This document shows, one piece after another, positions 4,666 to 36,790 of a stretch of DNA of 64,000 bases. Origin of the DNA: an uncultured Gammaproteobacteria bacterium (GTDB taxonomy: Bacteria; Pseudomonadota; Gammaproteobacteria; SZUA-229). The stretch covers positions 12,067 to 76,066 of the forward strand of contig CAWDMF010000013.1 of assembly GCA_963803185.1 (NCBI GenBank), given 5' to 3'. The stretch's first letter is position 1, and every line of letters starts with the position of its first letter. A program made the translations under genes and the position numbers. The notes under the pieces were generated by a model. That model did not search any database, was not told the DNA's origin, and saw only the letters and a program-made list of their open reading frames with translations.

Positions 4666-4690
4666 CTCTATTCAATCCTGCTGTTCTGGC

Positions 4691-6916: not shown

Positions 6917-7039
6917 GAAAAAACACCCTGAAAAAACTCGATTTATAATTAATCGAAAATTATACCAAAAACAGAGACTTATAACACGGCGTAGTGCCAA
7001 TATTTGTTATATATACTCAGCCGAAACGCTTTATGACTA

Positions 7040-7474: not shown

Positions 7475-7478
7475 TTTA

Positions 7479-7608
7479 TTAGTTGTAAGTTTTAAGTTTT
7501 AAGTTCATTGTAAAAAAACCGTTATAATTATCAAGCAGTTTTATATTATTAACTTGCAACTTTTAACTTACAACTTAAAACTTATAACTTATAACTTATT
7601 TTTAAAGT
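7479..7608. repeat. AT-rich inverted-repeat element (family 2), overlaps last codons of hslR
   Basis: gttgtaagttttaagttttaagtt ... aacttacaacttaaaacttataacttataac inverted arms around 60-bp spacer. Confidence 0.6.
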
Positions 7609-7975
7609 TTCGCAACTGCTCGCGTTCATGCTTACCGGGTTTACGCTTTGGCACCGGTCTCGTGGCTGAAGCCAGTTTTTTCATTTTCTGTTCCTGCTCA
7701 CGTTTTAACCGACTTAGCTCAGATTCTTCATAGCTTAAACAAGCTTCTTTCGCCGGTCGCCGCGTTTTATTGATGCCGGTAATGGTCACTTCATATAAAT
7801 CATAATTTTTCTGAATAGATAAAACATCACCTATTTTGACCAGCCGCCCGGCTTTAACGCGCTGTCCATTTAAATGAACCTTACCACCATTAACAGCATT
7901 ACTAGCCAATGCCCGAGTTTTAAAAAATCGAGAGGTCCACAACCACTTATCAATTCTAATTCCGTCTTTTGTCAT
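7589..7975 (-). CDS. hslR: ribosome-associated heat shock protein Hsp15 (S4 domain)
   Basis: IRIDKWLWTSRFFKTRALA S4 RNA-binding N-terminus, basic C-terminal tail. Confidence 0.75.
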   Translation of the reverse strand: MTKDGIRIDKWLWTSRFFKTRALASNAVNGGKVHLNGQRVKAGRLVKIGDVLSIQKNYDLYEVTITGINKTRRPAKEACLSYEESELSRLKREQEQKMKKLASATRPVPKRKPGKHEREQLRNFKNKL

Positions 7976-7989
7976 ATGCCGTTATTTTG

Positions 7990-8952
7990 TCAGATTAATA
8001 AAGCTATCCCAACGATGCCTAATAGCCACCACCAAAGACTGCTACTTTCCTGTTCAGGCTTTTCAGGCTCTTTAAGCTCTGTTTTTACCACAGGTTTAAT
8101 CACACCCGGTTTAATTTTCATTTTCCTGGGCACCGCTTTTGGCAATGGCACATAAGCGGTTTCACCTTTGGCGATGACTTCATTTCCCGCTTCATTATGC
8201 ACATTAACCAGGCCTTTGATCACTTCCAGATAAAGCCCGTCATCTGCATCAATGGTACCGCCACAGCCTTTGGACTGGAATACTCGCAAGGCATATTCTG
8301 TGCCACGCACACCAACACTGGCTAGCGGTGTTTTTAACTCATAAACATCTTCTGTCATTTTCCCGATCTTGCCGGTTATTTTTTTCAAACTGCCCTGTAG
8401 TAAATTCAGGATACTTTTGCGATTGCTGTTATTTAACGCGTATTCTTCAATCACCATAATACTGAAACACCTCAAATCCAGTATGGCTTCATCAATCATA
8501 CGAAGACGCACAGAACCGTTTTCGCCAGTAACAACCTTGTCACCTAAAAAGACCGGGGAACCAGTTGATAATTCTCGTGACACTTTCCTTTTATCAACCG
8601 CAATCACACTACCACTGTTTTCTACGACAATCCCTACCTGTTGTCTTTTTACCGGTTTTACCGGCTCAGAACGAACCACAACTTTTTGCGGTAAAGTCAG
8701 GCGCACACCTGCTTTCATCTGCGTTGGATCATTATTGATAAACGCATGTGGATTTTGTCGTACGATATCGTTAGTTATTTTCGGCCACTGTTTTACCCGA
8801 TTGGGATATAACTGTTTAACGATATTATGCAGTGTTTGCCCTTTTTGCACATGCAGATAGCGGATATCAGTGTTATAGGCTTCTTTGGCGAATGAGACCG
8901 ATGGATGAAAACCGAGTACAAATAAAAAAATCAATAACTTAACTAGGAACAT
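7990..8952 (-). CDS. secreted LysM-like/FecR-domain protein with C-terminal TM anchor
   Basis: Signal peptide, LHVQKGQTLHNIV LysM-like segment, FecR-like core (GDKVVTGENGSVRLRM), C-terminal hydrophobic helix. Confidence 0.5.
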   Translation of the reverse strand: MFLVKLLIFLFVLGFHPSVSFAKEAYNTDIRYLHVQKGQTLHNIVKQLYPNRVKQWPKITNDIVRQNPHAFINNDPTQMKAGVRLTLPQKVVVRSEPVKPVKRQQVGIVVENSGSVIAVDKRKVSRELSTGSPVFLGDKVVTGENGSVRLRMIDEAILDLRCFSIMVIEEYALNNSNRKSILNLLQGSLKKITGKIGKMTEDVYELKTPLASVGVRGTEYALRVFQSKGCGGTIDADDGLYLEVIKGLVNVHNEAGNEVIAKGETAYVPLPKAVPRKMKIKPGVIKPVVKTELKEPEKPEQESSSLWWWLLGIVGIALLI

Positions 8953-9076
8953 CTTTACTTTGGAGAGGTAGTTTGAATACTCAAAGTATAGCTATAGATG
9001 TTCTGTTTTTGAGAAATTCTTTACAATAATGCTAAGGAACCTCTGAATAAGTCATGAATCGACATCTTGTGATTAA

Positions 9077-9153
9077 AATGGCCTGCTTCAAGGCGTGTAA
9101 CGCGCGTAATAGCAGGGCTATTGCGAAGTTTCACAACGATGAAGCAGGCCATT
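9077..9153. repeat. hairpin (14-bp stem aatggcctgcttca / tgaagcaggccatt, about 45-nt loop)
   Basis: seen directly in sequence downstream of htpG. Confidence 0.5.
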
Positions 9154-9198
9154 TAACCGACAATCTGTTCGAACCAGACTTAATCAGAGATTCCCTAA

Positions 9199-9407
9199 AA
9201 CTTATTTAGTCCACGAAGCACGCACTAAAATGCCGGGAGCATTTTGAACGTACGCTAGTACGGTCCGAAGGACGTAGCACAGGAGGCGCGTAGTAAAACA
9301 CGCAAATATTTTTAAGCTAAAAAAAGCTTTTATCTGTGTTGACATGCAGGGATAGCGCTAATGTAGCCTGCGCATGGAGCGCAGGAGCTACCATCTGCGT
9401 GCATCTG
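9199..9407. repeat. degenerate copy of family-1 palindromic element (GAACGCAAAT-type)
   Basis: left arm ttatttagtccacgaagcacgcac, right arm catctgcgtgcatctgtggac resemble arms of copies at 14381, 22848, 53418. Confidence 0.45.
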
Positions 9408-9423
9408 TGGACTGCTATTTTCT

Positions 9424-11328
9424 TTATTTGTCTAACAGTTTATTCACTCGTTTCACAAAACCAGCTGCATCTTCCAGAGGCGCACCGGCTGCAAGCTGTG
9501 CCTGCTCAAATAACAGATGCGTATAATCTTCAAACTGGTCATCGTCTGTTATATCGTTAAGTTTTTTAACCAGACTATGATCTGGATTTAACTCCAGTAT
9601 TGGTGCTGATTTTGGCGCATATTGCCCCGCCGCCTCCATAATCTGCTGCATTTGTGCACTCATGTCGTTTTCTTCTAATACCAGACACGACGGCGAATCT
9701 GTTAAGCGTTGCGATAAACGAACTTCTTTGACTTTATCACCCAGCACTTTAGTCGCATGTTCAATAACCGAGGTAAAAGTTTTTTCTGTTTCTGCAAGTT
9801 CCTTCTTATCTTCTTCCTCGTCAATATCAAGCGTACCACGAGCTACTGACTGCAGTTTTTTACCGTCCACTTCAGTCAGGTGTGATACCAGCCATTCATC
9901 AACACGGTCACTCAATAACAATACTTCAATGCCTTTTTTCTTGAACACTTCCAGGTGCGGGCTATTTTTTGCTGCCGTGTAATTATCTGCAACAATGTAA
10001 TAAATTTTCTCCTGGTTATCAGGCATACGCGAAATATAATCATCCAGAGTAACGTTCTGTTCATCATTGCCATTATGTGTACTGGCAAACAACAATAGTT
10101 TTGCAATACGCTCTTTGTTTACCATGTCTTCGATTGGACCTTCTTTCAGCACCTGGCCAAAAGATTTCCAGAAAGTCGCATATTTTTCAGCATCCTTTTT
10201 CTGCAGAGACTCAAGCAAACCCAGCACTTTCTTCACTGAAGCACCGCGAATTCGATCGATTACCTTGTTCTGCTGCAATATCTCACGTGATACATTTAAT
10301 GGTAAATCATCTGAATCGATAACACCTTTAACAAAACGTAAATAGGTAGGCATCAACTGTTCTGCATCGTCCATAATGAAAATACGTTTTACATACAGTT
10401 TTACCCCGCGTTTATGGTCACGGTCGAATAAATCAAACGGTGGATTGGTTGGTATGTAAAGCAACGATGTATAACTTTGATTGCCTTCTACTTTTGAGTG
10501 TGTCCAGCTCATCGGGTCGGCAAAATCCATGCTGACGTGTTTATAAAATTCCTTATAGTCTTCGTCAGAAATATCACTTTTATCACGAGCCCACAATGCA
10601 GATGCGCTGTTTACGCGCACCTCTTTGGTGATGACGTTACCATCAGCATCTTTTTCAGGCTTGCCTTCATCATCCAGCGCTGCTTCAGTCATCATTACTG
10701 GAATTGAAATATGATCAGAATACTGCTTGATTATGCTTTTCAGGCGATAGGGGCTGGCGAATTCGGTTTCGCCCTCTTTCAGATGCAGGGTAACTTTGGT
10801 GCCGCGTGTTTCCTTGTCAATATTTTCCAGCGAGAAACTGCCTTCGCCATCAGATTCCCAACGAACAGCTTCATCGGAAGCAACACCTGCACGGCGTGTC
10901 TCCAGGGTAACTTTATCTGCTACGATGAAACTGGAATAAAATCCCACACCAAACTGACCGATCATCTGAGCGTCTTTAGCCTGATCACCACTCATCGCCT
11001 CAAGGAATTTTCTTGTTCCTGAACTGGCAATTGTGCCTACATTATCAATCACTTCCTGACGCGACATACCAATACCATTATCACTAATAGTGATGGTTTT
11101 AGCTTCTTCATCAAAAGCAACGTGGATCGATAATTCAGAATCGCCGTCATACAGACTATCGTCGGCCAAAGCCTCAAAACGAAACTTATCACAGGCATCA
11201 GATGCATTCGATACAAGTTCCCGCAGGAATATTTCTTTATTTGAATACAGTGAATGGGTCATCAAATGCAGGATTTGACGGGCTTCTGTTTGAAATTCGA
11301 GGGTTTCTTTACTCGCTTCGACGCTCAT
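9424..11328 (-). CDS. htpG: molecular chaperone HtpG (Hsp90)
   Basis: [16 protein letters not shown] ... GIGMSRQEV ... GQFGVGFYS motifs, 634 aa. Confidence 0.95.
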
Positions 11329-11378
11329 TTTTTACTCCAAAAAATAGAAAATTAGTAATAATTTTGCTGGTTCTGTTG

Positions 11379-11407
11379 AATATGGGAATGAAAAAGCTAT
11401 TATCAAG
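11379..11407 (-). promoter_or_regulatory. candidate sigma-32 heat-shock promoter of htpG (-35 CTTGATA, 13-nt spacer, -10 TCCCATATT)
   Basis: minus-strand reading cCTTGATAatagctttttcatTCCCATATT about 45 nt upstream of htpG ATG; matches CTTGAAA/CCCCATNT consensus. Confidence 0.5.
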
Positions 11408-11585
11408 GCATAGTATGGGAAGTAATTAAAAAAATACTCTCTCTTTATAAACTATCTAAATGTCAACAATACGGCTCAGCACTACTTCACTCGAGCCTTC
11501 TTAATACTCAAAAAATAAATTTATAAAAAGGGATAAAGTCCAAGCTAACTCAAGTATTTACCGACTTATTACGGGGCACCCTGTT

Positions 11586-12386
11586 TTGAAAAAGTATTTT
11601 ATTTCACGCATTATATATGCCTTACTGCTATCTTTATTTTCAGTGAACGCCTCAGCTGAAAAATACAATCTGTCCATACAGCCCGTATTACCTGCTAATC
11701 AGATAAAGGCCAATTATCAGCCTCTTTCAGACTATCTTGCTAAAAAGACCGGTCACGAATTCACTATTATTGCTTACAGGGATTTTCTGACTTACTGGAT
11801 ACGCATGAAAAAGGGCAAAAACCTGCACTTCATCCTGGATGCCGCACATTTTACCGATTTCCGCATTCAGCGGAAAGATTACCAGGTACTGGTAAAAATA
11901 CCTGATACGGTTAGTTTTACTGTAGTAACCAATGAAGAAAATTTTGTTTTTGATATGGATGAGCTGATTTCAAAAAGGATAGCATCAATGCCTTCCCCGG
12001 GCCTGGGTGCAATAAGATTAAATCAAATGTTTCCTAATCCATTACGGCTACCGATTAGTATCCAGGCCAGTGACTCAATTGATGCCGTAAACAAAGTACT
12101 GGATGGTTCTGTTGTTGCGGCCATTATCCCGAGCCCACTGGTAGGAAGATTTGAAGGTTTAAACTCTGTCATTTCAACAGAACCCGTTCCTCATATGGCA
12201 TTATCCGCCTCTCCACAAGTTCCTGATGATGTTGCAAAGGCTGTTAAAAAAGCATTAATGGAAGCAGCCAGCTCGGCTGAGGGTAAAAAGATGCTTGCAG
12301 ACATAAAACTTGCCGGCTTCGAGGATACCAACAGCAAGACATACGCAGGTTATGCAGACATGCTCGATGGAGTTTTTGGTTATTAA
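11586..12386 (+). CDS. PhnD/SsuA-like periplasmic substrate-binding protein (TTG start), orphan (no adjacent ABC permease/ATPase)
   Basis: Signal peptide, phosphonate-binding SBP-like fold motifs; 266 aa. Confidence 0.55.
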   Translation: MKKYFISRIIYALLLSLFSVNASAEKYNLSIQPVLPANQIKANYQPLSDYLAKKTGHEFTIIAYRDFLTYWIRMKKGKNLHFILDAAHFTDFRIQRKDYQVLVKIPDTVSFTVVTNEENFVFDMDELISKRIASMPSPGLGAIRLNQMFPNPLRLPISIQASDSIDAVNKVLDGSVVAAIIPSPLVGRFEGLNSVISTEPVPHMALSASPQVPDDVAKAVKKALMEAASSAEGKKMLADIKLAGFEDTNSKTYAGYADMLDGVFGY

Positions 12387-12428
12387 GCCCGTCATCACCT
12401 TCGCGGCTAAAACAGATCTCTTCGCTAA

Positions 12429-14315
12429 TTATTCACTATTCACTGTTTTCAACAAGCGTATTTTTTGCAGGTTCTGATTAATTATTGCCTTCCGTGAGTC
12501 ACTGGCAGTAACAACCAATAAATCGGAGAATACTTTTTTAGCATCATCATAGATCTTTGCCAGCATTAAAGCACTACCTGCTTTGAAACGTGCAGATTGT
12601 CCCCACAATTCATGCTCTTCCCCGGCTACTGCGCGTGCAGATTCCAGGTAAAATAATGCGGCCTGGTCATATTCTTGCAGTGAGAAATAGGACTCTGCTT
12701 TCCAGAAATAAATCTCTCGCTGTAGTTTTTCATCCAGCTTTTCTAAAGAGACTAGATCAAATAATTGAATAGCCTGCTGATGTTGTTGCACGGTTTGAAA
12801 ATCAAAAACCACCTGAATAAATCGATCCAGCTCTGCGCGGGTAATGCTTGTTTTTTCTGCAAAGGTTTTACGTATTAAATCTTCACTTTGCTGGTATTCA
12901 CCCTGCAAAATAAGAACACGTGCTTTTCGCATACGCCAGTCAAAAAACGATTTCCCCTGCGGAGGTTCTTTCAGGCTTTGCATTATTGTTGCTGCCTCAA
13001 AGTAGCTACCTTCTGACAAAGCATAATCAACCAGGCGATAACGCACTTCATCAGGCAACACATTTACATCCGTCACTTTATTACTGTGCAGGTAAAGCTG
13101 ATTGATTAATTCAAGACCATTTTTTCGACGCTCCAGTATTTCTACAATTGTTTTATGCTGTTGCTGCCTGGTGACAAATTTATCTGTATGCAATACCAGT
13201 GCAACATTTAGAGCCAGGGCTTTTTCTGGATCTTTATTGATTAACTGTTCTGACAATTTTTGCCATTGCTCATCATTGCCAAATAAAAGGCCGCTATCGT
13301 TGGCAGCCATTAAACCCTGCTTATTATACAAATCCCATAAGTCATCGGCAGTGACCTGATAATTATCATCAAACAGCGGGTATTCAATTCCCAGAGACAA
13401 CATCACTTCCAGGTTTGAAATTTGTGCTGAATTATCTGATAAGACTTTTGCTGCAAGATAAGCAACGTAAGAATATGCCCAACGTGCTGACTGACTTAAT
13501 ACCTGCCCATCAAGTTTTTCCCGCATTTGCTGGTTAATTTTTTTCGCACTTTTCGGATCATTTTGTAATTTCGCAATTAACAACAAGGCTTCAATATCAA
13601 CTGCATTTTCAACAGGGATCTTCTCTAATAGCTGAATGGCCTGCTGTGGCCGCTGGGTTTTGAGCAGCAACTGCGCCTGCAGCAAAACCCAGTCTATATT
13701 TGATTCATCTGTTTTATAGTCACGCTCATATTTAACCAGTGCTCTTCGCGCATCATCGTCTGCTTCTAGCTGCAAATAAGCACGAATAACCAGTCGTCGC
13801 CAGACAACAGGCAATGATGGGTCTCGATGTTCCGGCTCGGTGCTCCACAACAGATATTGCAGCTGGTTTAATGCCTGCTCACTTTGTTTTAATTGCAATC
13901 TTGCTATCACCTGCTGAGTTTCGAACCATAAACGAATTTTTCGTGTGATATGCCCTTCACTTTTAGCAGTATCAAATAACCATTGTGTTCGTTCGACAAT
14001 TTTGTTCCAGCGTTCAAGTGCTGACATTAATACGATACGTTTATACTCAAAGGTATACCAGTCCGCAGAAAACGCGGGCCGTTTATTCTGCTCGCCATCT
14101 AACAGGCTTAATGCTAACGCTGGCACCCCGAGCTCAATCAGCTCATTCATTTGAGCTAAAGATTTGAAAGTGACTGACTGTTTATTTTCAGCAGGAGTTG
14201 CAGCATTATTTGGCGTTGCTGGCACTGTAGCAGGAGAATCATTCTGCTCTGCCCAGGTTTTGGCAAAAACACCAAATATCAGTAAAACAGAGAATAAGAT
14301 ACGCATCGATAACAA
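12429..14315 (-). CDS. secreted tetratricopeptide-repeat protein, function unknown
   Basis: Signal peptide MLSMRILFSVLLIFGVFAKTWA, repeated helical TPR-like segments, 628 aa. Confidence 0.55.
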   Translation of the reverse strand: MLSMRILFSVLLIFGVFAKTWAEQNDSPATVPATPNNAATPAENKQSVTFKSLAQMNELIELGVPALALSLLDGEQNKRPAFSADWYTFEYKRIVLMSALERWNKIVERTQWLFDTAKSEGHITRKIRLWFETQQVIARLQLKQSEQALNQLQYLLWSTEPEHRDPSLPVVWRRLVIRAYLQLEADDDARRALVKYERDYKTDESNIDWVLLQAQLLLKTQRPQQAIQLLEKIPVENAVDIEALLLIAKLQNDPKSAKKINQQMREKLDGQVLSQSARWAYSYVAYLAAKVLSDNSAQISNLEVMLSLGIEYPLFDDNYQVTADDLWDLYNKQGLMAANDSGLLFGNDEQWQKLSEQLINKDPEKALALNVALVLHTDKFVTRQQQHKTIVEILERRKNGLELINQLYLHSNKVTDVNVLPDEVRYRLVDYALSEGSYFEAATIMQSLKEPPQGKSFFDWRMRKARVLILQGEYQQSEDLIRKTFAEKTSITRAELDRFIQVVFDFQTVQQHQQAIQLFDLVSLEKLDEKLQREIYFWKAESYFSLQEYDQAALFYLESARAVAGEEHELWGQSARFKAGSALMLAKIYDDAKKVFSDLLVVTASDSRKAIINQNLQKIRLLKTVNSE

Positions 14316-14380
14316 CCCGTTTTTATGTTTATTGTTTTAATTGTATCAGCAACACGAAAACAAAAAGAAAAACTTTTTTT

Positions 14381-14519
14381 AGTCCACAGATGGACGCAAA
14401 TGAACGCAAATATAAAACCTGGTATGGATCTGTGTATTTGGCATTCATAAGGTGTTAATCAAGTGGGTTTGGTATTACAAAGATTTTTCTTTGCGTTCAT
14501 TTGCGTTCATCTGTGGACA
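14381..14519. repeat. family-1 palindromic element (arms agtccacagatggacgcaaatgaacgcaaat / atttgcgttcatttgcgttcatctgtggac)
   Basis: about 30-bp inverted arms containing tandem GAACGCAAAT decamers around 78-bp spacer. Confidence 0.8.
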
Positions 14520-14548
14520 ATATTTTTTGGACTACTATTTTTCAGACG

Positions 14549-14577
14549 AAAAAAAAGCGGCACACTAAGCACCGCTC
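14549..14577 (-). terminator. rho-independent terminator downstream of rplS
   Basis: minus strand: agcggtgcttagtgtgccgct hairpin followed by T8. Confidence 0.55.
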
Positions 14578-14601
14578 TTAAAAAATTATAAATATGCCTG
14601 A

Positions 14602-14964
14602 TTATTTTTTATCAGACAGTTTAAGCTTTTCGGTAATACGTGCCGCTTTACCCGTTCTACCACGTAAGTAGTAAAGTTTTGCGCGACGTACTTTACCGCT
14701 GCGTTTAACGGTGATATCACCAATTGCATTACTGTACGTCTGGAATACACGCTCAACACCTTCACCGTGCGACATTTTACGTACGGTAAATGCAGAGTGT
14801 AAACCACGGTTGCGTTTTGCAATTACTACGCCTTCGAAAGCCTGTAAACGCTCACGATCACCTTCCTTTACACGTACCTGAACCACAACGGTATCACCAG
14901 GATAAAATGCTGGTACTTCACGTGTCATTTGTTCAGCTTCAAGCTGTTGAATTATGTTGCTCAT
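14602..14964 (-). CDS. rplS: 50S ribosomal protein L19
   Basis: 120 aa, [13 protein letters not shown]...[13 protein letters not shown]19 signature. Confidence 0.9.
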
Positions 14965-15098
14965 ATCATTACTCCGCTTTCGCGCCTTAATCTGTGTTGT
15001 TATCTCTAATGTATATCTTTATTCTGCTATTTAGCATGTTAAGTCCTTTTCACTGTAACCTGCACTTTAGCTAACCCTATGGACAGTACGGTTTGTAT

Positions 15099-15893
15099 TC
15101 ATCCATTATAATCAGCTATAAACTCAGCTAACAGGTCTGCTTTTTCAGCATCCCAGTGTATCGCATCTTTTTTCACCGCTTCCAGCAGATCCGGCCTTCT
15201 TAACCAGGTTCGACCCAACGACTGCTTTAAACGCCAGCGTTGTATCGCCTTATGGTCACCGCTTAATAAAACATCCGGCACATCCTGACCATTAACCGTT
15301 TCAGGCCGGGTGTAATGCGGACAATCCAGCAAACCCTGCATGAATGAATCCTGTATCGCCGATTCATCATCACCTAACACACCGGGTATTAAGCGAGTTA
15401 TGGCATCAACTACAACCAGTGCAGCAAATTCGCCGCCACTTAACACATAATCACCAACTGACCATTCTTCATCAACCAGTGATTCGATTAATCGCTCATC
15501 GATACCTTCGTATCGACCAGCAATCAAAATTAAATCCCTTTCCAATGTCGTGGCCTGTGCAGCGGTCTTCACTACCAGCTGCTGATTTAACTGTTGACCC
15601 TGCGGACTCAGGTAAACCACTTTGACCGACTTCTTCGCCGACAATCCAGCGACTACCCCTGCCGCTTCCCTGGCTGCCATTATTGCTTTCGCTAATGGTT
15701 CGACTTTCATCAGCATACCGGGGCCACCACCGTAAGGCCGGTCATCTACCGTGTGATGTCTGTCTTTTGTATAATCTCTTGGATTAAAACATTGCAGCTT
15801 AAGCTGCTGCTGTTTTATCGCTCTACCCAACACGCCAAATGTTACGGCCTGCTGTATTAATTCTGGAAACAGAGTAATGAGATAAATATTCAC
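15099..15893 (-). CDS. trmD: tRNA (guanine37-N1)-methyltransferase
   Basis: LITLFPE...VLGRA...GGGPGMLM...GRYEGIDER motifs. Confidence 0.9.
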
Positions 15894-15920
15894 AGTGCTG
15901 TTTCGCGTTTTTAACCCTGA

Positions 15921-16541
15921 CTAAAACTCAGGATCCCAGTCAACTTCAATAACTTTGCGTACCATATCAACCGCAATAATCGCGTTATTCATCGTCCATG
16001 GAATCAAACGTTCTCTGACTTCCGCTTTAGAGCCTACTGCAGGCTCTATTTCAGAAGCGACCACCAGTACATCATTAGCACCCGTTTCCAGCAAACCTTT
16101 TACCACACCCAGCTCAACATTTTGCTGGTTGATTACCCGCAAGCCAATCAGGTCTCGCCAGTAATATTCATTTTTTTCTTTTAATGATTCAAGCTGTTCA
16201 AGTTCTATTGCAATTTCAGTTCCAATGTAAGCCATCGCAGCATCACGATCATTACACTGTTCAAGTTTTGCAACCACTGTTTTAGCCTGGCGTTTGCCTG
16301 CTTTCAGCTGCACCCGGGTCCATGGTGCCTTTTGTCGACCCTCAGCCCTTATATACCAGGGATTGTAATCAACAATAGCTTCCATCGGCTCGGTGTATGA
16401 AAAAACTTTAACCCAGCCTTTTACACCGTAAACTCCAGTAATTCGTCCTAATATGACTTTTTCCGAAGCCTCATCCTGCTGCGTATCTTCTAGCCGCTCT
16501 TCATCTTGTGTGTATACCATGTCCTTAACAATAAGGCTCAT
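15921..16541 (-). CDS. rimM: ribosome maturation factor RimM (start possibly internal)
   Basis: ILGRITGVYGVKGWVKV ... PRC-barrel C-term, position between rpsP and trmD. Confidence 0.85.
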   Translation of the reverse strand: MSLIVKDMVYTQDEERLEDTQQDEASEKVILGRITGVYGVKGWVKVFSYTEPMEAIVDYNPWYIRAEGRQKAPWTRVQLKAGKRQAKTVVAKLEQCNDRDAAMAYIGTEIAIELEQLESLKEKNEYYWRDLIGLRVINQQNVELGVVKGLLETGANDVLVVASEIEPAVGSKAEVRERLIPWTMNNAIIAVDMVRKVIEVDWDPEF

Positions 16542-27843: not shown

Positions 27844-28448
27844 ACGTAGCTAATACAAAAAAAACATATGTGTTAAGCCCGCTTTTTTATCAGCTGGCAA
27901 GCAATGCTACGATAAACCATTGCTAATGCCTGATGCATTGCTTTTGCATAACGGGCAAACAAATAGCGCTGCTCACAAGGAAAGCTGATACCCCATTGGT
28001 GTCCAGGCTCATCAGCTTATACTTCATCGACGAGTAAAGTGGCACTCTCAGGCATATGCCTGGCGCCAACAGAAAGCACAACAGAAAGGGAAAGCTCAGT
28101 GCCACGTGATGTTCGGCGTGGCAGGTCTCGCAGCACAACCGCAGCAAGCCCTGTTCCAGGTAGCTGCATTTCAGTAGTCGCCGATCCATACCCGCTGGAC
28201 GTAACCGGGCAAATCCTGGATATGCCATAAAAAGGTCGCGGGCAGTGTACCGCTGGCATTTTAATCTTATGTTGCTGCCGTACCAGTACTCTTGCAAAGT
28301 GATGCTAACCTGCTCTACTTCAGGCTTCCGGGCTTTCGCCTTTCGGGCCAACCATTGGTTGTTCAAAATCGCTGCCGACGATTTTGTCGCGGCAATGACA
28401 GCTAAGCGGTAAAGCAGTGCGGGAATTCCTTTTTTATTCGCTGCCGGT

Positions 28449-28878
28449 TTACCTGTGGCAGTCCCGGCAGCTGTCATGCGGGCCCGTGGGGAGGCTCTGC
28501 TCATGCCGATGTTTATGGCAGCCGGTGCAAAGGCCATGGAATGCTTGCTGCGCGTTGCGCACCGGTGGTTCAGCGTCGTTCACCGAATCGGGCTCGGCTT
28601 TCCTGATATTGGCGATGCTGAAATACCTGGCCTGGTGGCAGGCTATAACAGCTGCGAACAGGCTCGTCCTTAGTGCGCAACGTATGGTGGCAGGTGACGC
28701 AGCGTACACCTTCGAGGTCACTGTGGCGCTGGTGGGCGAAGGTTACCGGACCGAACTTGGGCGTCAGGGTGATCTCGGCCTTTTCGGGCGGGATAGCGTC
28801 AGTCGCGGTCACCAGCGCCGGCGCAAGCCCAAAAAATAGAACGAACCAGCGCAACCGATTTGGGGCAGCTGGCCGCAT
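28449..28878 (-). pseudogene. c3-type tetraheme cytochrome c with Sec signal peptide, interrupted by an apparent 1-nt insertion near 28640 inside the second heme motif (CYSCH)
   Basis: Frame A (28878->28570): MRPAAPNRLRWFVLFFGLAPALVTA...VTFAHQRHSDLEGVRCVTCHH...RSCYS; frame B (->28449): ...AFHGLCTGCHKHRH...DSCRDCHR; deleting one C restores CYSCH giving four CxxCH. Confidence 0.5.
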
Positions 28879-28894
28879 CTGCACGCAGCTCGGG

Positions 28895-30277
28895 CTAGAA
28901 GTAATAACGAACACGGAATTCCAGCTTGTAGTTGTTGGGCTTTTCTCCCCACTCGGTGAGCTGATCGCCAATAGGCGCAATCAGTCGTAGCCGTAGGTCC
29001 AGGTTATCGACGCCTTCGTAGTTCAGCTCAGGCGAAACCGAGTAGCTGTTATCCAGCAAGTTGTAGAGCACCTGGAAACCCGGCGTGAAATAAAGGATGT
29101 TGTAGGGCTCTCTCCACCAGGCACGCAGGTGAAAATACTGGCGCATGGGATTGGGTTTGGTGAATGGACCCTTGTCGACGTCTTCGTCGAGGGGCAGTCC
29201 GGCCAGCAGGTCCGGATCGCCGGCGTCCCAGGCGCGGTGAACGCATTCGTAAAACTGCCGCTGATCCTGTTCCCGGTTTCCGGCGCCGTTGTAATAATAT
29301 TCAGCGATCCAGGTGACATCGTTCTCGGTTCGGTAGCGCAGCCCGAGTAGAGAGCTGATTTTGTCATCTGGCGCCTCCCGTGTGAATTTGCAATCCGGGG
29401 TTATGTTGTGCAGCGACACATCGGTGAGGTAAGCGAGTTCGCCGTGGACCGCAAAATTGGTGGTGATGTTACTGGCAAAATCCATGCCGTAGCGTGCTGT
29501 CTTGCTGCCTTCACTGAGGAACAGGAAATCGATGTCAGTGTTCTGGTACAGCAGGTAAAGCTTGGCCGCGTAGTTGGTGAAGCCTTCCTTGCCGAAGTCA
29601 TTATTGATGCTGCCGCGGTTCGGCAGTACCAGTGGCGTTAAGGCAACGGTCTTCAGCCGGCCGCCGAAGGTCTTTATATAATCGAAGCCGGCGATCCAGA
29701 AGCCCTCGCGCGCAAGATCGGGATTACCGGCGTCCTTGGCCCGTTCAACAAATGCGACGGGGTTCCACGCGTAGCCGGTGCCCCAGCGATAGGCCTTCTT
29801 GCCCATGTCAAAGCTGAAGCCGGGATCAGGCTGCAGGTTCAGCAGGCCCTCGTACAATATGGTTTCGCCGCTTTCGTCGGTGTAATCCCAGGTCTTGCTG
29901 GTATGAGTGCGGAAAGACAGGGTGGTGATGCCCCGCCGGTAGCGACCATCGAGTTCGAGTACGGCCGGCAGGCGGGAGATGCTGTCGCGCGGCTGTTCGT
30001 CGAAGAACTGCAGCTGGTACAGCGCACCATCCTGGTTGCTCTGTGCATAATTCGGCTCGATCTCGGCGTAACCGCGCAGCACGAATGGTTTGGCCTCAAA
30101 TTTTTCGACGTCGAAGGTGAACTCGTCGGCACCCAGACCCGGCATCGACGTCACCACACAGGCGGTGGCAATCAAGACTCCTGCATGCCGACGGAGGCTA
30201 GCTCGTGTCAATAGCCCAGTCGCCCGCCCCCCTCTTTCCATACCGCTAAGAACCATGGGTGCTGGCAGTTGAGTCAC
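28895..30277 (-). CDS. outer-membrane beta-barrel protein (GTG start overlapping upstream stop; mature start probably internal after signal peptide)
   Basis: 460 aa, signal-like LIATACVVTSMPGLGA, alternating amphipathic strands rich in Y/W/G, C-terminal ...EFRVRYYF aromatic terminus typical of OM barrels. Confidence 0.55.
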   Translation of the reverse strand: MTQLPAPMVLSGMERGGRATGLLTRASLRRHAGVLIATACVVTSMPGLGADEFTFDVEKFEAKPFVLRGYAEIEPNYAQSNQDGALYQLQFFDEQPRDSISRLPAVLELDGRYRRGITTLSFRTHTSKTWDYTDESGETILYEGLLNLQPDPGFSFDMGKKAYRWGTGYAWNPVAFVERAKDAGNPDLAREGFWIAGFDYIKTFGGRLKTVALTPLVLPNRGSINNDFGKEGFTNYAAKLYLLYQNTDIDFLFLSEGSKTARYGMDFASNITTNFAVHGELAYLTDVSLHNITPDCKFTREAPDDKISSLLGLRYRTENDVTWIAEYYYNGAGNREQDQRQFYECVHRAWDAGDPDLLAGLPLDEDVDKGPFTKPNPMRQYFHLRAWWREPYNILYFTPGFQVLYNLLDNSYSVSPELNYEGVDNLDLRLRLIAPIGDQLTEWGEKPNNYKLEFRVRYYF

Positions 30278-31014
30278 CGCAGCTCCTTCACCTTCGGCAT
30301 GTAGTTGAGCGTGAACACCTCGTCCGGAAAATCGCGGGCCTGGACTTTTGCAAACAGCATGACCGCCTTGTAGCCCTTGTACAGAGGGCTGTCGGTCTCG
30401 AGCATGGAAGGCCGCCGGATACCGTCGCCGAAGTCCTTGATTTCGCTGTAACGGAGCCGCTTGATCAACAAACCGCTGGCAGCGAAAGCCTCAATCGACA
30501 GCGGTAGCAGGGAACTTTTATCCACCACCATAGCCAGGCGATCATAGGCCACGGAGCCCGTCCTGGCCTTCAGTGACAGCTTGTAGTTGTCAGCCACTTC
30601 CTCGATGGTCTCGACGTTGTATTCAGTGCTGAACTCCAGTCGCATCAAGTCGGAATTATTGAAGATGCCGCCAACGACCGATTGCAGGCTGGTGATGCGG
30701 ATCGGTTTGCCCACATCGGGGATGAACAGCCACATGTTGTCGCCACGGCGAAGGGTGGTGCGACCGGCGTCGGTGGACGGCTCCAGGAACAACGCAACCA
30801 TGCTGTCACGACCTTTTTTGGCGGTATATAAGACGAATTCCTTGCGCTTACCGTCCGGTTCAACATTGATGAGTTTGCGATACATCTCGTACGACTCGGG
30901 GGCCAGGTTGCGATCCACCTGTTGCAGAATCGACTGCCCGTCAACAGCGTGGACACTGGCGGCGGCGCACAGCAGGATCACTACAGCCAGCAAGATTGGT
31001 CGCCTCATGTTCAC
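30274..31014 (-). CDS. periplasmic LolA-like (outer membrane lipoprotein-sorting protein family) carrier protein
   Basis: 246 aa with signal peptide MNMRRPILLAVVILLCAAASVHA; size/composition and operon context with MacB-type ABC typical of LolA-like proteins. Confidence 0.4.
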   Translation of the reverse strand: MNMRRPILLAVVILLCAAASVHAVDGQSILQQVDRNLAPESYEMYRKLINVEPDGKRKEFVLYTAKKGRDSMVALFLEPSTDAGRTTLRRGDNMWLFIPDVGKPIRITSLQSVVGGIFNNSDLMRLEFSTEYNVETIEEVADNYKLSLKARTGSVAYDRLAMVVDKSSLLPLSIEAFAASGLLIKRLRYSEIKDFGDGIRRPSMLETDSPLYKGYKAVMLFAKVQARDFPDEVFTLNYMPKVKELR

Positions 31015-31409
31015 TCGCCCCTCAATTCCTTGGCGACATCTTCGACAGTGCCACTGCGGCGGACAAAGCGTACTTTGCGTGCAACCATGACGTCCTCCAT
31101 CTTGGGCCCGACCATACCGCCGACGAGCACTGAGACACCCTTGTCGGCGAGTGTGGTGGCTGCCGCCGGTCCGATGCCGAACTCGAGATCAAGGTGGGGA
31201 TTGGCAAGGACCTCGATGGCTTTACCGTTGATATCGTAGAGGTGGAAATAGGGCGAAATGCCTGACAGCTTGCTGATCGACGACGTCAGTTCGGCACCCT
31301 CTGCCGCTATAGCGAAGTTATCGGCTTTGTAGGCGTCGGCTTCTTCGGCCGCAAAGGTCGACGTCAGCGTAAGGGTGACTAATGCGAAAAAGGAAAGTAC
31401 TCTGATCAT
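31011..31409 (-). CDS. secreted NifX/NafY-like dinitrogenase FeMo-cofactor-binding domain protein
   Basis: Signal peptide MIRVLSFFALVTLTLTSTFA; APYFHLYD...GKAIEVLAN and FGIGPAAATTLADKGVSVLVGGMVGPKM match PF02579 consensus (apyfliyd / ggaGi.aa.lL...gvdvv.tg.iGp). Confidence 0.55.
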   Translation of the reverse strand: MIRVLSFFALVTLTLTSTFAAEEADAYKADNFAIAAEGAELTSSISKLSGISPYFHLYDINGKAIEVLANPHLDLEFGIGPAAATTLADKGVSVLVGGMVGPKMEDVMVARKVRFVRRSGTVEDVAKELRGE

Positions 31410-31468
31410 AATGTTTCTCCTGGTGAAGACACAAACTCGCCGCTATCCAGCATGTTCGTATCCGGGGT

Positions 31469-32905
31469 TCATACGTGCCTTAATGCCTTGATCGGGTTCA
31501 TCCGCGAGGCCTTCCAGGCGGGCTGTAAACTTGCCAGGACCGCGACGAGTATGGTCAGCAGCCCGGTGATAATGACATCGGAGGCGGATATTGAGGGTAC
31601 CAGGATGAGATTATCCTGGCGCCCGAAGGCGATAGTGAAGGTCATCCGGTTGGCGATCCCAATGGCAGCAAGGCTGATCGCGGTCCCGATCACCGTCCCG
31701 ACGAAACCAAGAAGGAAACCCTCGCTGACGAACAGCGCCAGGATCGTAGCAGGTTTTGTGCCAATGGCGGAGATGGTGCCAATCTCCCGGATGCGTTCAT
31801 ATACTGCCATGATTAACACGTTCATGACGCTGATCAATACCACAGAAATCAGGATAATCCGGATGAACAGGGTCATCAGGTCTATCATGTCAGCAATCTT
31901 GGAAAACGGCACGAATTTCTGCCAGGGGTGTATCTGAAAAATGGTCAGCCCACGGCGGTTTTTCAATTCAGCGACTTTGGCCTCGAGACTGGCGAGCGTA
32001 ATTTCCTGCATGCCGCGATCACGCAATCGGATCGCGATCTCACTGACCTCGGAAGGTTGTCCCCAGCCTCTTTCGCTGAACAGCTTGCGCGTTGCGGGCA
32101 AAAACTCGTCGGTATCAGTGAGCGGAACCGGTGGTTGCTCGGCCAGTGCCGCGTCTCGCTTCAATTTGAGGCTGTCAACGGGGGCTTCGGCCGGCGCCTC
32201 GGCATAACCAAGACCCGCAAGTAATTCCTGTTCGACCGCCTGTTCCTCTATGCGCAGGAGTTCGCGCGCGTCGTCGATATGGAGGTAGCCGTCTCGACCG
32301 CCCGGACCGGAGATACTCTCAAGGATGCCCTGTACCACAAAGGTCTTGCCATTGACCGAACCGTCCTTGTTGGTTGCCACCAGCACAACGGTATCACCCA
32401 CCTTGACTTTCATGCCGTTGGCGATGAGCTCCGGGACCTGGATTTTGCCTTTTTCCACCAGGGGTGAGGACGTGCCGCCGGCGAACACCCGCTGGGTGAC
32501 CTGTGGCACGGTGGCGACCTCGCGATCGGGGTAGACGCCGTTGAGTCGGATGCTGGTGGTGCTGGCGAAATTGCTGAACATGGCCATCAACTTGATCCGC
32601 GGCGACCACGCCTCGATCTCGTCGGTTTCGTCAAGGCTCTGGTAAAGCTTGACCAGCATTCGTGGCCGCATGTTGCGATCGACGGGCAGGCTTTCCATGG
32701 CACCGACATAACCGCGACGGTGAACCTGGAGGTGTCCCACCATGGAGTCGGTGAATTGCGATACCATCATGGTCTTGAACGAGCCGGCAACCGCGATAAA
32801 TAGTAACACGGCTACCAGGCCCACGGTGATCAGAAGCGAGGTCAGAATAGTGCGTCGCTTGTAGCGCAGCAGGTTGCGACCCGCGATCTTGAGTACGTCA
32901 TTCAT
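31469..32905 (-). CDS. ABC transporter permease, FtsX/MacB/LolCE-type with about 300-aa periplasmic domain (ORF extends to 33028 but probable start MNDVLKIAGRNLLRYKRR at 32905)
   Basis: N-terminal TM, large periplasmic domain, C-terminal 3 TM helices ending ...SLQPAWKASRMNPIKALRHV typical of FtsX family. Confidence 0.75.
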   Translation of the reverse strand: MNDVLKIAGRNLLRYKRRTILTSLLITVGLVAVLLFIAVAGSFKTMMVSQFTDSMVGHLQVHRRGYVGAMESLPVDRNMRPRMLVKLYQSLDETDEIEAWSPRIKLMAMFSNFASTTSIRLNGVYPDREVATVPQVTQRVFAGGTSSPLVEKGKIQVPELIANGMKVKVGDTVVLVATNKDGSVNGKTFVVQGILESISGPGGRDGYLHIDDARELLRIEEQAVEQELLAGLGYAEAPAEAPVDSLKLKRDAALAEQPPVPLTDTDEFLPATRKLFSERGWGQPSEVSEIAIRLRDRGMQEITLASLEAKVAELKNRRGLTIFQIHPWQKFVPFSKIADMIDLMTLFIRIILISVVLISVMNVLIMAVYERIREIGTISAIGTKPATILALFVSEGFLLGFVGTVIGTAISLAAIGIANRMTFTIAFGRQDNLILVPSISASDVIITGLLTILVAVLASLQPAWKASRMNPIKALRHV

Positions 32906-33602
32906 GGCTTGCACCCTCATCTTTTGTCTGCCGTCGCACATGGCCGTCCTCGAGTACGAAGGTCTCCTCAGCCTCGGCCATGATCTTGGGATCGTGCGTC
33001 GAGAACACGAAGGTGGTACCAAATTCATCCCGGAGTTGTCGCATCAGCCCGATGATCCGGAGGGCCGTTGAGCGATCGAGATTCGCGGTTGGCTCGTCGG
33101 CAAGCACCAGCCTGGGATTCGTCACCAGGGCGCGGGCCACGGCGACCCGCTGCTTCTGGCCACCGGACAGCTGATCGGGACGTTTATCGGCCTGGTCAGA
33201 GATACCCGCTGCGGCCAGCAGGCTAAGGATCCGCTCGCGGCGACGCTGCAGGGGCCATTTCTGCACCATGATCAGCGGGTATTCCACATTCTCGTATACC
33301 GTAAGCACAGGAATAAGATTGAAGTCCTGAAAGACGAAGCCGATGTTCTCTCCACGGAATACCGCTGCTGCGTGATGGTCGAGTGTCGATACGTCCGTGC
33401 CGCTGACGGTGAGGCGGCCATCGGTCGGTGGATCGAGGCAGCCGATCATGTTGAGCAGCGTACTCTTGCCGCTTCCGGAGGGCCCGACGAAGCAAACGAA
33501 TGATGCCGGCTCGATGCTAAAGTCGACGCCGCGAATCGCGTGGACCGTCACATCGCCGGTGCGGTAATCCTTAACCAGATTTTCTGCGGTCACCAGGCTC
33601 AT
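32898..33602 (-). CDS. ABC transporter ATP-binding protein (MacB/LolD-type)
   Basis: Walker A GPSGSGKSTLLN, signature LSGGQKQRVAVARAL, Walker B LVLADEPT, H-loop; 234 aa. Confidence 0.85.
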   Translation of the reverse strand: MSLVTAENLVKDYRTGDVTVHAIRGVDFSIEPASFVCFVGPSGSGKSTLLNMIGCLDPPTDGRLTVSGTDVSTLDHHAAAVFRGENIGFVFQDFNLIPVLTVYENVEYPLIMVQKWPLQRRRERILSLLAAAGISDQADKRPDQLSGGQKQRVAVARALVTNPRLVLADEPTANLDRSTALRIIGLMRQLRDEFGTTFVFSTHDPKIMAEAEETFVLEDGHVRRQTKDEGASHE

Positions 33603-33706
33603 TGCCTGTCTCTCCTGTCTATCTGCGCGTCAGCCTTTTTCCTGCCCGTGGATCCCGCCTGCGGAGGTGCAAAGTCCAGTATCTCATCCAGGGCCCTCAT
33701 TACCGG

Positions 33707-34357
33707 CTATTTCTTCAGCTTTAACGGGTGTAACTGCTTGAGCAAGCCGGGTTCAGGTTCTTCGTCGTGGAGGTAACCTGGCGGCGGATAGATGGTCTCA
33801 CAAGTCCCCTCTTTGACCTCGGCCAATTCCCGCTGCGTCATGCAGACGTCGTAATTGCCAGGGCCACCATCCAGCTTGCCGTATCCGGGTCCATCCCACA
33901 ATACGTCAAAATCGCCCTCTCCGCCATAGAGCTGGTCGTCACCCGGCGCGCCAAACAGCCAGTCGTCACCGGGGCCGCCGTAAATGATATCAACACCGCG
34001 CGCGCCAAACAGGGAGTCAATGCCGGGGCCACCGCACAGGATGTCGTCCCCTGCGTCGCCGTGGACGACGTCGTTGCCAGGACCGGCGACGATGACATCA
34101 TTTTCGTCGCTACCCAGTATCAGGTCATGACCGGTAGTGCCCACACAAGTGGCTTTCTCGCCATGACAGAGCGGCACTTCGCTCAGGCCTGGCGGAAGAT
34201 AGGGGCACTTGATTACAGTATGAGCGGTCGTGTAGTCGGGGAAGGCTTCCTTGGTCACTTCGGGGCCCGCCGCCGTGGACATCGCGGCTAACGCGACGCT
34301 GATCGCAACAGCGATTTCGAAAAGACAAGAAACTCGGGATGATGATAAAACGCACAT
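33707..34357 (-). CDS. secreted RTX-like calcium-binding beta-roll protein (hemolysin-type GGxGxD repeats) with N-terminal Sec signal and Cys-containing flanks
   Basis: tandem nonapeptides GGPGIDSLF GARGVDIIY GGPGDDWLF GAPGDDQLY GGEGDFDVL; N-terminal hydrophobic signal, no C-terminal T1SS-type signal evident. Confidence 0.6.
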   Translation of the reverse strand: MCVLSSSRVSCLFEIAVAISVALAAMSTAAGPEVTKEAFPDYTTAHTVIKCPYLPPGLSEVPLCHGEKATCVGTTGHDLILGSDENDVIVAGPGNDVVHGDAGDDILCGGPGIDSLFGARGVDIIYGGPGDDWLFGAPGDDQLYGGEGDFDVLWDGPGYGKLDGGPGNYDVCMTQRELAEVKEGTCETIYPPPGYLHDEEPEPGLLKQLHPLKLKK

Positions 34358-34708
34358 TTTTTTATTCTCCTAATGTCATTTTTATTATTGTCCTTACAGT
34401 TGTTAAGTATACTCCCACTTTTCTAACGACATCAACCCTTCGGCTTCATTCTTTTGCAAAATTCAACCAATGCTCATCAGCTTTATTGCTGGTCAACAAT
34501 TTGTCGTACGAATACCCGATGTGCAGCTGACAGAATTCACCGATGCATTAACGCACGGCGAGATATTGCTGATGGCCGATGTATCACTTTTCGTGTTGCT
34601 GAAATTGAAAATCTTGTTCATAAGCAGCATCCAGAAGCGGCAGTTAGTGGTATAAGCTGGACAATGGATGGTTTCGGTATTTAACCTGGAGATTTTAAAA
34701 TAGCCGGG

Positions 34709-36255: not shown

Positions 36256-36390
36256 AATCTTTTTAACAACCACAAAAGTTATTTTTCTATACTTAAGCCG
36301 AATTTAGCATGGCTATGCAATATCCGGCGTAAGCAGACAATAAATAGCACCATCATGATGCACTTCTGTTCCACAAATAATATCTAGAGA

Positions 36391-36700
36391 CATGGATCGG
36401 AAGCACCTTGCTGAGACCGTCAGCCACAGGGCAGGTGTTTTGCTCCTGCAAAACCTGCACTTCCACCGTCCGTGGTGGTCGGATGTGGCTGCCGAGCCCC
36501 CATGGATGGGTTTACGGCGTGTCTCAGCAAGGTGCTTACGGTTCATGTCGGTTGTAAACAATGCTTTTAAGCAGATACACTGGCACCGAGACATGAATTG
36601 TGTGTTACCGCCAAAGACACGCCGTAAACCCATCCATGGGGGCTCGAACCCCGCATCCATGCGTGATACGGTCTTTGGCGGTAACACGCAACCCATGCCT
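36391..36700. repeat. complex block of interleaved GC-rich inverted repeats (three or more overlapping hairpin pairs)
   Basis: catggatcggaagcaccttgctgagac / gtctcagcaaggtgcttacggttcatg; gagcccccatggatgggtttacggcgtgtc / gacacgccgtaaacccatccatgggggctc; tgtgttaccgccaaagac / gtctttggcggtaacacg. Confidence 0.7.
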
Positions 36701-36790
36701 CTCATATTTGTGAAACCGAAGTGCATCATGATGGTGCTATTTATAAATCAGACCCTGTCGCAGATATCAGGGTTAAAATATTTAATGATG

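Follow-up and report, generated by a model that had tools for sequence, protein, structure and literature searches.

Results

Gene and repeat architecture

Here we describe a small RTX-like gene and the envelope gene cassette that it opens. They were found in a 64,000-nucleotide stretch of DNA from an uncultured Gammaproteobacteria bacterium (assembly GCA_963803185.1, contig CAWDMF010000013.1, positions 12,067 to 76,066 of the forward strand); this whole stretch is called the window below and all coordinates refer to it. The gene lies on the minus strand at 33707..34357 and encodes 216 amino acids plus the stop codon. It is a real and conserved gene, supported by the list of open reading frames (ORFs), by homologues and by a match to PF00353 (Pfam HemolysinCabind; E 7.5e-31, 106 bits against a cut-off of 23, in four stretches). 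A Shine-Dalgarno sequence, AGGAG, can be read at 34367..34371 (minus strand), with a 9-nt spacer to the ATG. The AT-rich spacer 5' of the gene contains two overlapping sigma-70-like promoter candidates at 34378..34435 (minus strand); the consensus scan that yielded them found six sigma-70-like sites where 4.1 were expected, and the promoters are to be read as candidates. ORFs on the opposite strand over the gene (for example 33767..34291, plus strand) were considered and rejected as unsupported by-products of the GC-rich repeats.

The repeats are in a continuous register. In a six-frame scan of the window the string GxxGxDxUx occurs nine times, and six of the nine lie in phase within the RTX-like ORF. 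More specifically, a 9-residue register runs without interruption from aa 73 to 153, which makes nine nonapeptides, and is followed by a one-residue slip and two degenerate units. The earlier note on this DNA had reported five consecutive nonapeptides. Five good ones do stand in succession (aa 100-144), but the register analysis shows that the number is an undercount. Together with the fold match described below, this analysis delimits a beta-roll at aa 73-173 (33839..34141, minus strand), which contains C108 and C172.

On both sides the repeats are bordered by conserved segments. The N-terminal cap, aa 30-72 (AGPEVTKEAFPDYTTAHTVIKCPYLPPGLSEVPLCHGEKATCV; 34142..34270, minus strand), carries C51, C64 and C71, all invariant in an alignment of 42 homologue sequences (alignment A1) on which the conservation data below are based. 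The C-terminal cap and tail, aa 174-216 (QRE...C186 ETIYPPPGYLHDEEPEPGLLKQLHPLKLKK; 33710..33838, minus strand), has invariant Q175, R176, C186, PPPGY and H197, which together give the motif Q-R-E...C-x-T-x-Y-P-P-P-G-Y-x-H. The Cys-bearing flanks that had been pointed out before are both present as quoted, aa 50-71 KCPYLPPGLSEVPLCHGEKATC and aa 170-190 DVCMTQ...EGTCETIY. The region 3' of the repeats, about 45 aa long, is strongly conserved and Pro-rich and has one Cys; the signals of type I secretion systems (T1SS) have no sequence consensus with which it could be compared. The C-terminal PLKLK tail was considered as a transporter-docking mark and rejected, as PLKLK and LKLGKPK variants both occur with a full cassette.

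Predicted signal peptide

The N-terminus of the protein was judged by hand-made rules, which included the n/h/c architecture, Kyte-Doolittle means, the -3/-1 rule and a check for lipobox and twin-arginine (Tat) motifs. According to these rules aa 1-29 (MCVLSSSRVSCLFEIAVAISVALAAMSTA; 34271..34357, minus strand) form a signal peptide with a predicted signal peptidase I cleavage after A29. The n-region contains R8, the hydrophobic core spans aa 12-26, and positions 27-30 read S-T-A/A, where the slash marks the cleavage site. Taken over 10 residues, the highest Kyte-Doolittle mean of the window protein is 2.76 (aa 15-24), and the family average is 2.40. A basic n-region and a hydrophobic core are present in 42/42 aligned homologues, and the variable stretch ends at a conserved AxA/AGP. 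At the site that follows A29, 40/42 sequences have A, V, T or S at position -3, and 41/42 have A or S at position -1. This junction also marks an abrupt change in mean identity to the window protein, from 17.5% on its N-terminal side to 71% on its C-terminal side. Moreover, residues 9-27 form a lone helix in the AF2 model.

No lipobox ([LVI][ASTVI][GAS]C) was found in the window protein, and the single hit among the 42 homologues is a chance match inside the h-region. A Tat motif was found neither in the RTX-like protein nor in the signal regions of the family. The protein thus shows the sequence pattern of a Sec and signal peptidase I substrate. The predicted mature form has 187 aa, a mass of 19.6 kDa and a pI of 4.24. 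The earlier note had proposed a hydrophobic N-terminal Sec-type signal in place of a T1SS arrangement, and both parts of this proposal agree with the n/h/c features and the AxA site that are kept across the homologues.

Predicted fold and conserved residues

A structural model made by AF2 with alignment A1 has a mean pLDDT of 85.5, with values above 90 for about aa 45-170 and a short strand every 9 residues; over the last 20 residues the pLDDT drops to 60 and then to 39. In a Foldseek search of the PDB the model superimposes on RTX block V of CyaA with a root-mean-square deviation of 1.6-2.2 A over about 90 residues (probability 1.00), and the matches that come next are to serralysin, lipase and AlgE R-modules. 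The same proteins were matched when PDB sequences were searched with a profile, the E-value for CyaA reaching 5.7e-49. Most of these alignments cover only aa 71-179; the exceptions are one lipase alignment reaching aa 35 and two alkaline-protease alignments reaching aa 190. In this search the caps showed no resemblance to solved structures outside the repeats. The model therefore predicts that the RTX-like protein folds as a parallel beta-roll, as had been suggested from its repeats.

The residues expected to bind calcium are conserved as well. The Asp at position 6 of the nonapeptide, which in RTX beta-rolls binds Ca2+ together with carbonyls of the turns, is invariant in eight repeats (D78, D87, D96, D105, D114, D123, D132 and D141), and Ca2+ loading of the repeats is predicted accordingly. 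Six cysteines, C51, C64, C71, C108, C172 and C186, are also invariant across the alignment, so the Cys-containing caps are a family character. As the protein appears to be exported, the six cysteines probably form three disulfides; in turn, they fit an oxidising compartment and so support export.

Family distribution

A search of 5.8 billion proteins returned 335 relatives of the RTX-like protein. The best 120 of the 335 are full-length, 205-248 aa apart from five shorter or longer ones, and 56-95% identical. In a scan of one genome per GTDB species we found 28 full-length members, all in metagenome-assembled genomes (MAGs), and none in a cultured isolate. They belong to unclassified Gammaproteobacteria, Chromatiaceae/Chromatiales, Thiotrichales, Thiobacillus/Thiobacillaceae and unclassified Pseudomonadota, with one bin labelled Acidobacteria. 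As far as these searches go, the family and its cassette appear confined to uncultured sulfur-oxidising bacteria.

Searching 1.84 billion representative proteins with a profile of alignment A1 gave 233,393 matches, among which giant RTX proteins with multiple blocks predominate; for nearly all of the best 150 matches, the best stretch is the repeat core only (about aa 70-170). The caps are therefore specific to the family, and this search is uninformative on the breadth of the family. Existing annotations of the homologues read only 'hypothetical', 'calcium-binding protein' or 'RTX toxin-like'. An exact-sequence look-up gave no record for the window RTX-like protein or for P0258. The literature searched on Sec-dependent or periplasmic RTX proteins, and on cassettes combining LolA-like, MacB and NifX-like proteins, provided general precedents only, with neither the family nor the cassette described.

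A divergent beta-roll subfamily is found in two loci (L033, 3036-3725; L041, 873-1478, minus strand). Its members do not have the FPDY...HTVIK segment, end with ...GVIGPR or ...GIIGPR, and are located away from any cassette, beside genes for exported ankyrin-repeat proteins.

Genes of the cassette

The RTX-like gene is the first of seven genes. The second encodes an ABC ATPase of 234 aa that resembles LolD and the MacB nucleotide-binding domain (32898..33602, minus strand; PF00005 at 7e-34). It starts 104 nt past the RTX-like stop codon, and its best NCBIfam matches are LolD, MacB and DevA, all under the curated cut-offs. The spacer between the two genes contains no terminator and no unusually stable hairpin (fold z-score +1.06). 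The third gene encodes a MacB-type (type VII) permease with MacB_PCD and FtsX domains (31469..32905, minus strand), 478 aa long from the ATG at 32905, and overlaps the ATPase gene by 8 nt; the same 478-aa call and the same 8-nt overlap are found in the closely related metagenome contig L036. The periplasmic domain of this permease is about 80-100 aa longer than that of LolC, LolE or MacB and has an Ala/Glu/Pro-rich insert (...EQAVEQELLAGLGYAEAPAEAPVDSLKLKRDAALAEQPPVPL...). A MacB_PCD/FtsX permease with a separate LolD-like ATPase makes the adjacent transporter MacB/LolCDE-like, that is, type VII.

The fourth gene (31011..31409, minus strand) encodes a periplasmic NifX-like protein of 132 aa with its own signal peptide and a Nitro_FeMo-Co domain (PF02579 at 1.3e-12). 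Next comes a LolA-like, or TP_0789-like, periplasmic protein of 246 aa (30274..31014, minus strand; PF17131 at 1.7e-38), the gene of which overlaps each neighbour by 4 nt. The sixth gene (28895..30277, minus strand) encodes an outer-membrane porin-like barrel of 460 aa ending in ...RVRYYF. This protein matched no Pfam family, and every one of its 780 homologues is annotated as hypothetical; it was assigned by AF2, which gives a barrel of about 18-20 strands (pLDDT 72.6), and by Foldseek matches to OmpF, OmpC and OprD (E about 1e-10, TM-scores 0.39-0.58). The last gene, for a tetraheme class III cytochrome c (28449..28878, minus strand), is disrupted: it is split over two frames by a one-base insertion at 28643 (tatAGcctgcc in the window, tatA-cctgcc in L036). 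In L036, which represents a 97.5%-identical strain, the cytochrome is intact, with four CxxCH motifs and PF02085 at 2.3e-10. The split gene is either a pseudogene in the strain or an assembly error.

An HlyB-type ABC, an HlyD-like membrane-fusion protein and a TolC-like gene were identified neither in the operon nor among the other scanned ORFs of the window. The large ones among these are housekeeping genes (pcnB, htpG, ffh, radA, proS, purF, dxs and dapA). An Rfam scan of the window gave 0 matches.

Conservation and reduction of the cassette

The order RTX-like, ATPase, permease, NifX-like, LolA-like and outer-membrane protein is the same on contigs with unrelated flanks, among them a 229-kb contig, a 1.36-Mb contig with dsrC nearby and 'Candidatus Kentrum eta'. 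The same six-gene order was found by tblastn across 35 loci. When we started in reverse, from three homologues of the outer-membrane protein, the RTX-like gene was first in 3/3 loci. The gene is thus indeed the first of the ABC operon, as had been noted earlier; co-direction, tight spacing and synteny all agree.

With 80 metagenome loci added, 107 distinct loci were available, and the denominators for each gene are the loci with enough downstream sequence. The ABC ATPase follows the RTX-like gene in 65/75 loci, the permease in 52/58, the LolA-like gene in 45/51 and the outer-membrane barrel in 40/45. The NifX-like gene follows in 52/53, and so it is this gene and not that of the ATPase which is the most faithful neighbour. 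The only locus without it is L033, where the RTX-like gene is the divergent paralogue with an ankyrin-repeat neighbour.

Reduced cassettes show which genes are retained together. In five loci (L032, 8962-10267, and L034, both from Thiobacillus, and L100, L115 and L116) the RTX-like gene is directly followed by the NifX-like gene; the ABC genes are missing, and the LolA-like and porin genes are also absent. In a sixth locus (L106, 1727-3900) both genes, RTX-like and NifX-like, are undamaged, and the product of each has a signal peptide. Between the two genes there is a remnant of the permease C-terminus (aa 419-462, 44 aa), and after them a remnant of the C-terminus of the LolA-like protein (aa 213-246, 36 aa). 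Here, therefore, the transporter arm has been deleted and the pair kept.

A comparison of distance matrices (mirror-tree) for 22 complete cassettes showed that the six proteins co-diverge (r 0.64-0.88). After the ATPase was regressed out, the RTX-like protein correlated with the NifX-like protein at 0.37, the permease at 0.32, the barrel at 0.16 and the LolA-like protein at 0.13, and in the same comparison the LolA-like protein and the barrel correlated at 0.72. In direction this seems to agree, weakly, with the gene-loss data.

A tetraheme cytochrome c3 gene lies 3' of the barrel gene in five loci (L007, L008, L013, L036 and L038), and other multihaem cytochrome genes lie near the cassette in L005, L021 and L041. 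The L041 locus (4604-16000) is expanded. On its upstream side the RTX-like gene is accompanied by an additional LolA-like gene and by two genes without annotation, for proteins of 261 and 449 aa; on its downstream side there are genes for a cytochrome c7-like protein of 445 aa and a class III cytochrome c of 145 aa. In L005 (Ca. Kentrum) an NapC/NirT cytochrome gene and a DUF4405 gene are located just upstream of the cassette.

Genomic setting

The composition profile reveals a GC-rich island at 28000..34360 that matches the seven-gene cassette. Its GC content is 54-61% (58% for the cassette) against about 44% in the flanks, and the flanking housekeeping genes have about 41-50%. On one side of the island are chrA, bamC and dapA, on the other folE2, queD and dxs. 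Contig L036 is 97-98% identical over 20 kb and has the same insertion at the same place, between chrA and folE2, so the island appears to be fixed in the population. The island looks horizontally acquired. No integrase, transposase or other mobility gene was identified at its edges, and the left edge (27.9-28.45 kb) was rejected as a remnant of an IS91-type transposase, as there is no Pfam match even at E 10.

Two stretches at or near the island deserve mention. Its tail, 27900-28450, 3' of the cytochrome gene, is GC-rich without a convincing ORF and differs in L036 by 7- and 12-bp indels. In the chrA-bamC spacer, at 36340-36744, there is a nested inverted-repeat element of about 405 bp, with outer arms of 40 nt that are 95% complementary, three more inverted-repeat pairs inside and spurious ORFs that mirror each other on the two strands. 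Here the identity between the window and L036 is 87%, with an inverted match, which is lower than elsewhere in the comparison. The element resembles a miniature inverted-repeat transposable element.

Discussion

Our results suggest that the RTX-like protein works in the periplasm, stabilised by Ca2+ and by disulfides, as a partner of both the NifX-like protein and the type VII ABC transporter, and that it is not cargo of the latter; we give this reading a probability of roughly 55%. According to it, the 216-aa precursor would be exported by Sec and cut after Ala29 by signal peptidase I. Once in the periplasm, the mature protein would bind Ca2+ through its nonapeptides, nine canonical and two degenerate, and form a beta-roll of about 5 nm, the ends of which would be closed by the family-specific N and C caps, probably via three disulfides. 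The protein would not leave the periplasm but serve there as an accessory subunit. The envelope cassette to which it would belong is self-contained and made of a MacB/LolCDE-like type VII ABC, a NifX-like small-ligand binder, a LolA-like carrier, a porin-like barrel and, in some lineages, cytochrome c3. The RTX-like and NifX-like proteins would be the core pair of this cassette, and the ABC, the LolA-like protein and the porin a dispensable transport arm. We regard the anatomy of the protein and the comparative genomics as solid, and from them we infer the function. A place among the periplasmic components of the cassette is plausible for the RTX-like protein. Its residence there would follow from the signal peptide, and for a contact with the NifX-like protein or the permease the partial correlations of 0.37 and 0.32 are an indirect hint.

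The export route is in keeping with this. Type VII (MacB-fold) ABC transporters work by mechanotransmission on things outside the cytoplasm, and each of the characterised ones has a Sec-exported periplasmic partner: EnvC, LolA, MacA and, as the latest, TesA (PMC12646458). The conserved co-location with a MacB-fold permease and its ATPase that is expected of such a partner was found here. A Sec signal is likewise to be expected, because type VII systems act on periplasmic or membrane-embedded substrates. The earlier note had called the arrangement atypical. This is correct in so far as classic RTX proteins have no signal peptide; beside a type VII ABC, however, a Sec signal is less paradoxical.

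Several points weigh against a partner role. The signal peptide call rests on hand-made rules. All homologues come from metagenomes or MAGs of uncultured organisms, and the partner role is an inference; incompleteness of the MAGs could hide a transporter elsewhere in the genomes that seem to have the RTX-like and NifX-like genes only. The partial correlations of the mirror-tree comparison are weak and confounded by shared ancestry. The C-terminal tail is conserved yet modelled with low confidence, and it has no assigned role. Moreover, the position as gene 1 and the 104-nt spacer would also suit an abundantly made cargo, and a Sec-exported, disulfide-bonded protein could still exit by type II secretion. 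The last two points lead to alternatives that have to be considered.

The protein could be cargo, exported by Sec and then taken by the MacB-type ABC from the periplasm to the outer membrane or the surface. MacB-type pumps act on periplasmic substrates, with Aat/dispersin and MacAB-TolC/STII as precedents, so the Sec signal suits this role as well. The RTX-like gene is first and directly upstream of the ABC genes in 65/75 loci, and the C-terminal tail, being conserved and flexible, could serve in recognition. However, neither a TolC-like duct nor a membrane-fusion protein was identified in the cassette, and its porin-like barrel of 16-20 strands would be too narrow for a folded, disulfide-locked beta-roll of 20 kDa. 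With neither a lipobox nor an acyltransferase, the LolA-like carrier would have nothing by which to hold the protein. Conservation of the mature sequence, at about 71%, is comparable to that of the machine parts. In addition, loci that have lost the genes for the ABC, the LolA-like protein and the outer-membrane protein still keep an intact RTX-like and NifX-like pair. We therefore consider cargo unlikely. The earlier note had seen in the protein a cargo or extracellular component of the adjacent transporter; the link to the ABC genes is upheld by synteny, and the cargo role has become less likely given the missing lipobox, the width of the porin and the loss of the transporter.

Alternatively, the protein could act on its own as a periplasmic Ca2+ buffer or sensor, or as an envelope stabiliser, and be merely co-transcribed with the transporter. 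Its acidity (pI 4.2) and about 8-10 predicted Ca2+ sites would suit such a function, and the divergent paralogues located off the cassette beside ankyrin-repeat proteins (L033, L041) show that beta-rolls of this kind also occur elsewhere. It is difficult to reconcile with the gene order, which is fixed across Gamma- and Betaproteobacteria between unrelated flanks; this order, with the NifX-like gene in 52/53 loci, would be difficult to account for if the genes had no function in common. Conservation of the caps and of the C-terminal tail is, in addition, strong and exceeds the needs of Ca2+ binding. An independent Ca2+ protein thus has a rather small chance of being correct.

Smaller still is the chance of a two-step exoprotein, for instance an adhesin or a mineral- or surface-binding protein, which would be exported by Sec and then leave by type II secretion or another route. 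A Sec signal and disulfides match the profile of type II substrates. Beta-rolls are usually extracellular (PMC3034196). Type II secretion genes, however, are linked to the RTX-like gene in none of the loci examined, and the conserved linkage is to periplasmic proteins that bear signal peptides of their own. Finally, a classical type I RTX exoprotein, with a C-terminal secretion signal and an incidental hydrophobic N-terminus, has the RTX repeats alone in its favour and can be dismissed because of the signal-peptide architecture kept in 42/42 homologues, the wrong class of ABC with no membrane-fusion protein or outer-membrane factor identified in the cassette or among the scanned ORFs of the window, the mature size of 20 kDa against 40 to >600 kDa for RTX exoproteins, and the six invariant cysteines.

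The ligand that the cassette handles may be hydrophobic or inorganic and related to redox chemistry. This is a speculation, to which we are led by the domain of the NifX-like protein, the cavity of the LolA-like protein, the multihaem cytochromes that recur around the cassette and its confinement to sulfur oxidisers. A more specific version, in which the cassette is an undescribed type VII ABC envelope machine of sulfur-oxidising Proteobacteria, with the Ca2+-rigidified beta-roll as a new partner class, that traffics for example zero-valent sulfur, polysulfide or a metal-sulfur cofactor through the periplasm, is rather unlikely, and we offer it as a speculation.

RTX beta-rolls are textbook markers of type I secretion and are thought to remain unfolded until they reach the Ca2+-rich exterior. 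A Sec-routed RTX family with invariant cysteines would, if true, show that the beta-roll has been reused as a periplasmic building block. Each type VII ABC is defined by its periplasmic partner, and the cassette would add a new type of partner and probably a new substrate class. The cassette itself, with its fixed set of genes and above all the exported NifX-like protein, makes up an entire and portable module of the cell envelope, wholly uncharacterised so far and seen exclusively in sulfur oxidisers that have not been cultured. It is important to note that annotation of such genes as 'RTX toxin-like' or 'hemolysin' is misleading.

Comparison with known systems

With type I RTX domains (CyaA block V, serralysin/AprA, HlyA and NodO) the protein shares the GGxGxDxUx nonapeptides, the Ca-ligand Asp and the parallel beta-roll. 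It differs from type I RTX proteins in its predicted cleavable Sec signal, its size of 20 kDa, its six cysteines and its unmatched caps; the linked ABC is MacB-type and not HlyB-type, and HlyD and TolC genes are not nearby. RTX exoproteins have a C-terminal secretion signal, pass through no periplasmic intermediate and range from 40 to >600 kDa (PMC3034196). Our protein most likely folds in the periplasm, the compartment which classical RTX proteins bypass (PMC3034196).

Like EnvC (FtsEX), LolA (LolCDE), MacA (MacB) and TesA (YbbAP), the RTX-like protein appears to be Sec-exported and soluble and is encoded beside a MacB-fold permease and a separate ATPase. The beta-roll fold is unseen among these partners, and in our case the partnership is deduced from the genes. 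In addition, the cassette has three candidate partners, and the RTX-like gene can outlive the transporter, which distinguishes it from these four systems.

Dispersin Aap (Aat) and the heat-stable enterotoxin STII (MacAB-TolC) are similar in that a small protein with a Sec signal goes with a MacB-type ABC, and STII is also disulfide-bonded. Aat and MacAB-TolC need a TolC-like duct and an adaptor, whereas the cassette has a porin-like barrel and a LolA-like carrier. The cassette also has no acylation machinery, and the RTX-like gene is kept when the ABC is lost.

The Borrelia cluster BBJ23-BBJ29 is alike in that it unites a type VII ABC and its separate ATPase with a LolA-like protein and a beta-barrel of the outer membrane. 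For this cluster of a MacB-like ABC, a LolA-like protein and an outer-membrane barrel, transfer of a non-polar ligand to the outer membrane has been proposed (PMC13078400). Its barrel, however, belongs to the Omp85 family and is not porin-like, RTX-like and NifX-like genes are missing, and the phylum is different. NifX, NafY and NifB-C share the Nitro_FeMo-Co domain (PF02579) with the NifX-like protein of the cassette. The characterised ones are cytoplasmic carriers of nitrogenase cofactors, while the cassette member has a signal peptide and belongs to an envelope cassette of sulfur oxidisers.

In summary, the fold and the repeat of the RTX-like protein are classical. What sets it apart from the known systems is its export route, its small size, its Cys-locked caps, its partnership with a type VII ABC and a NifX-like protein, and the cassette as such.

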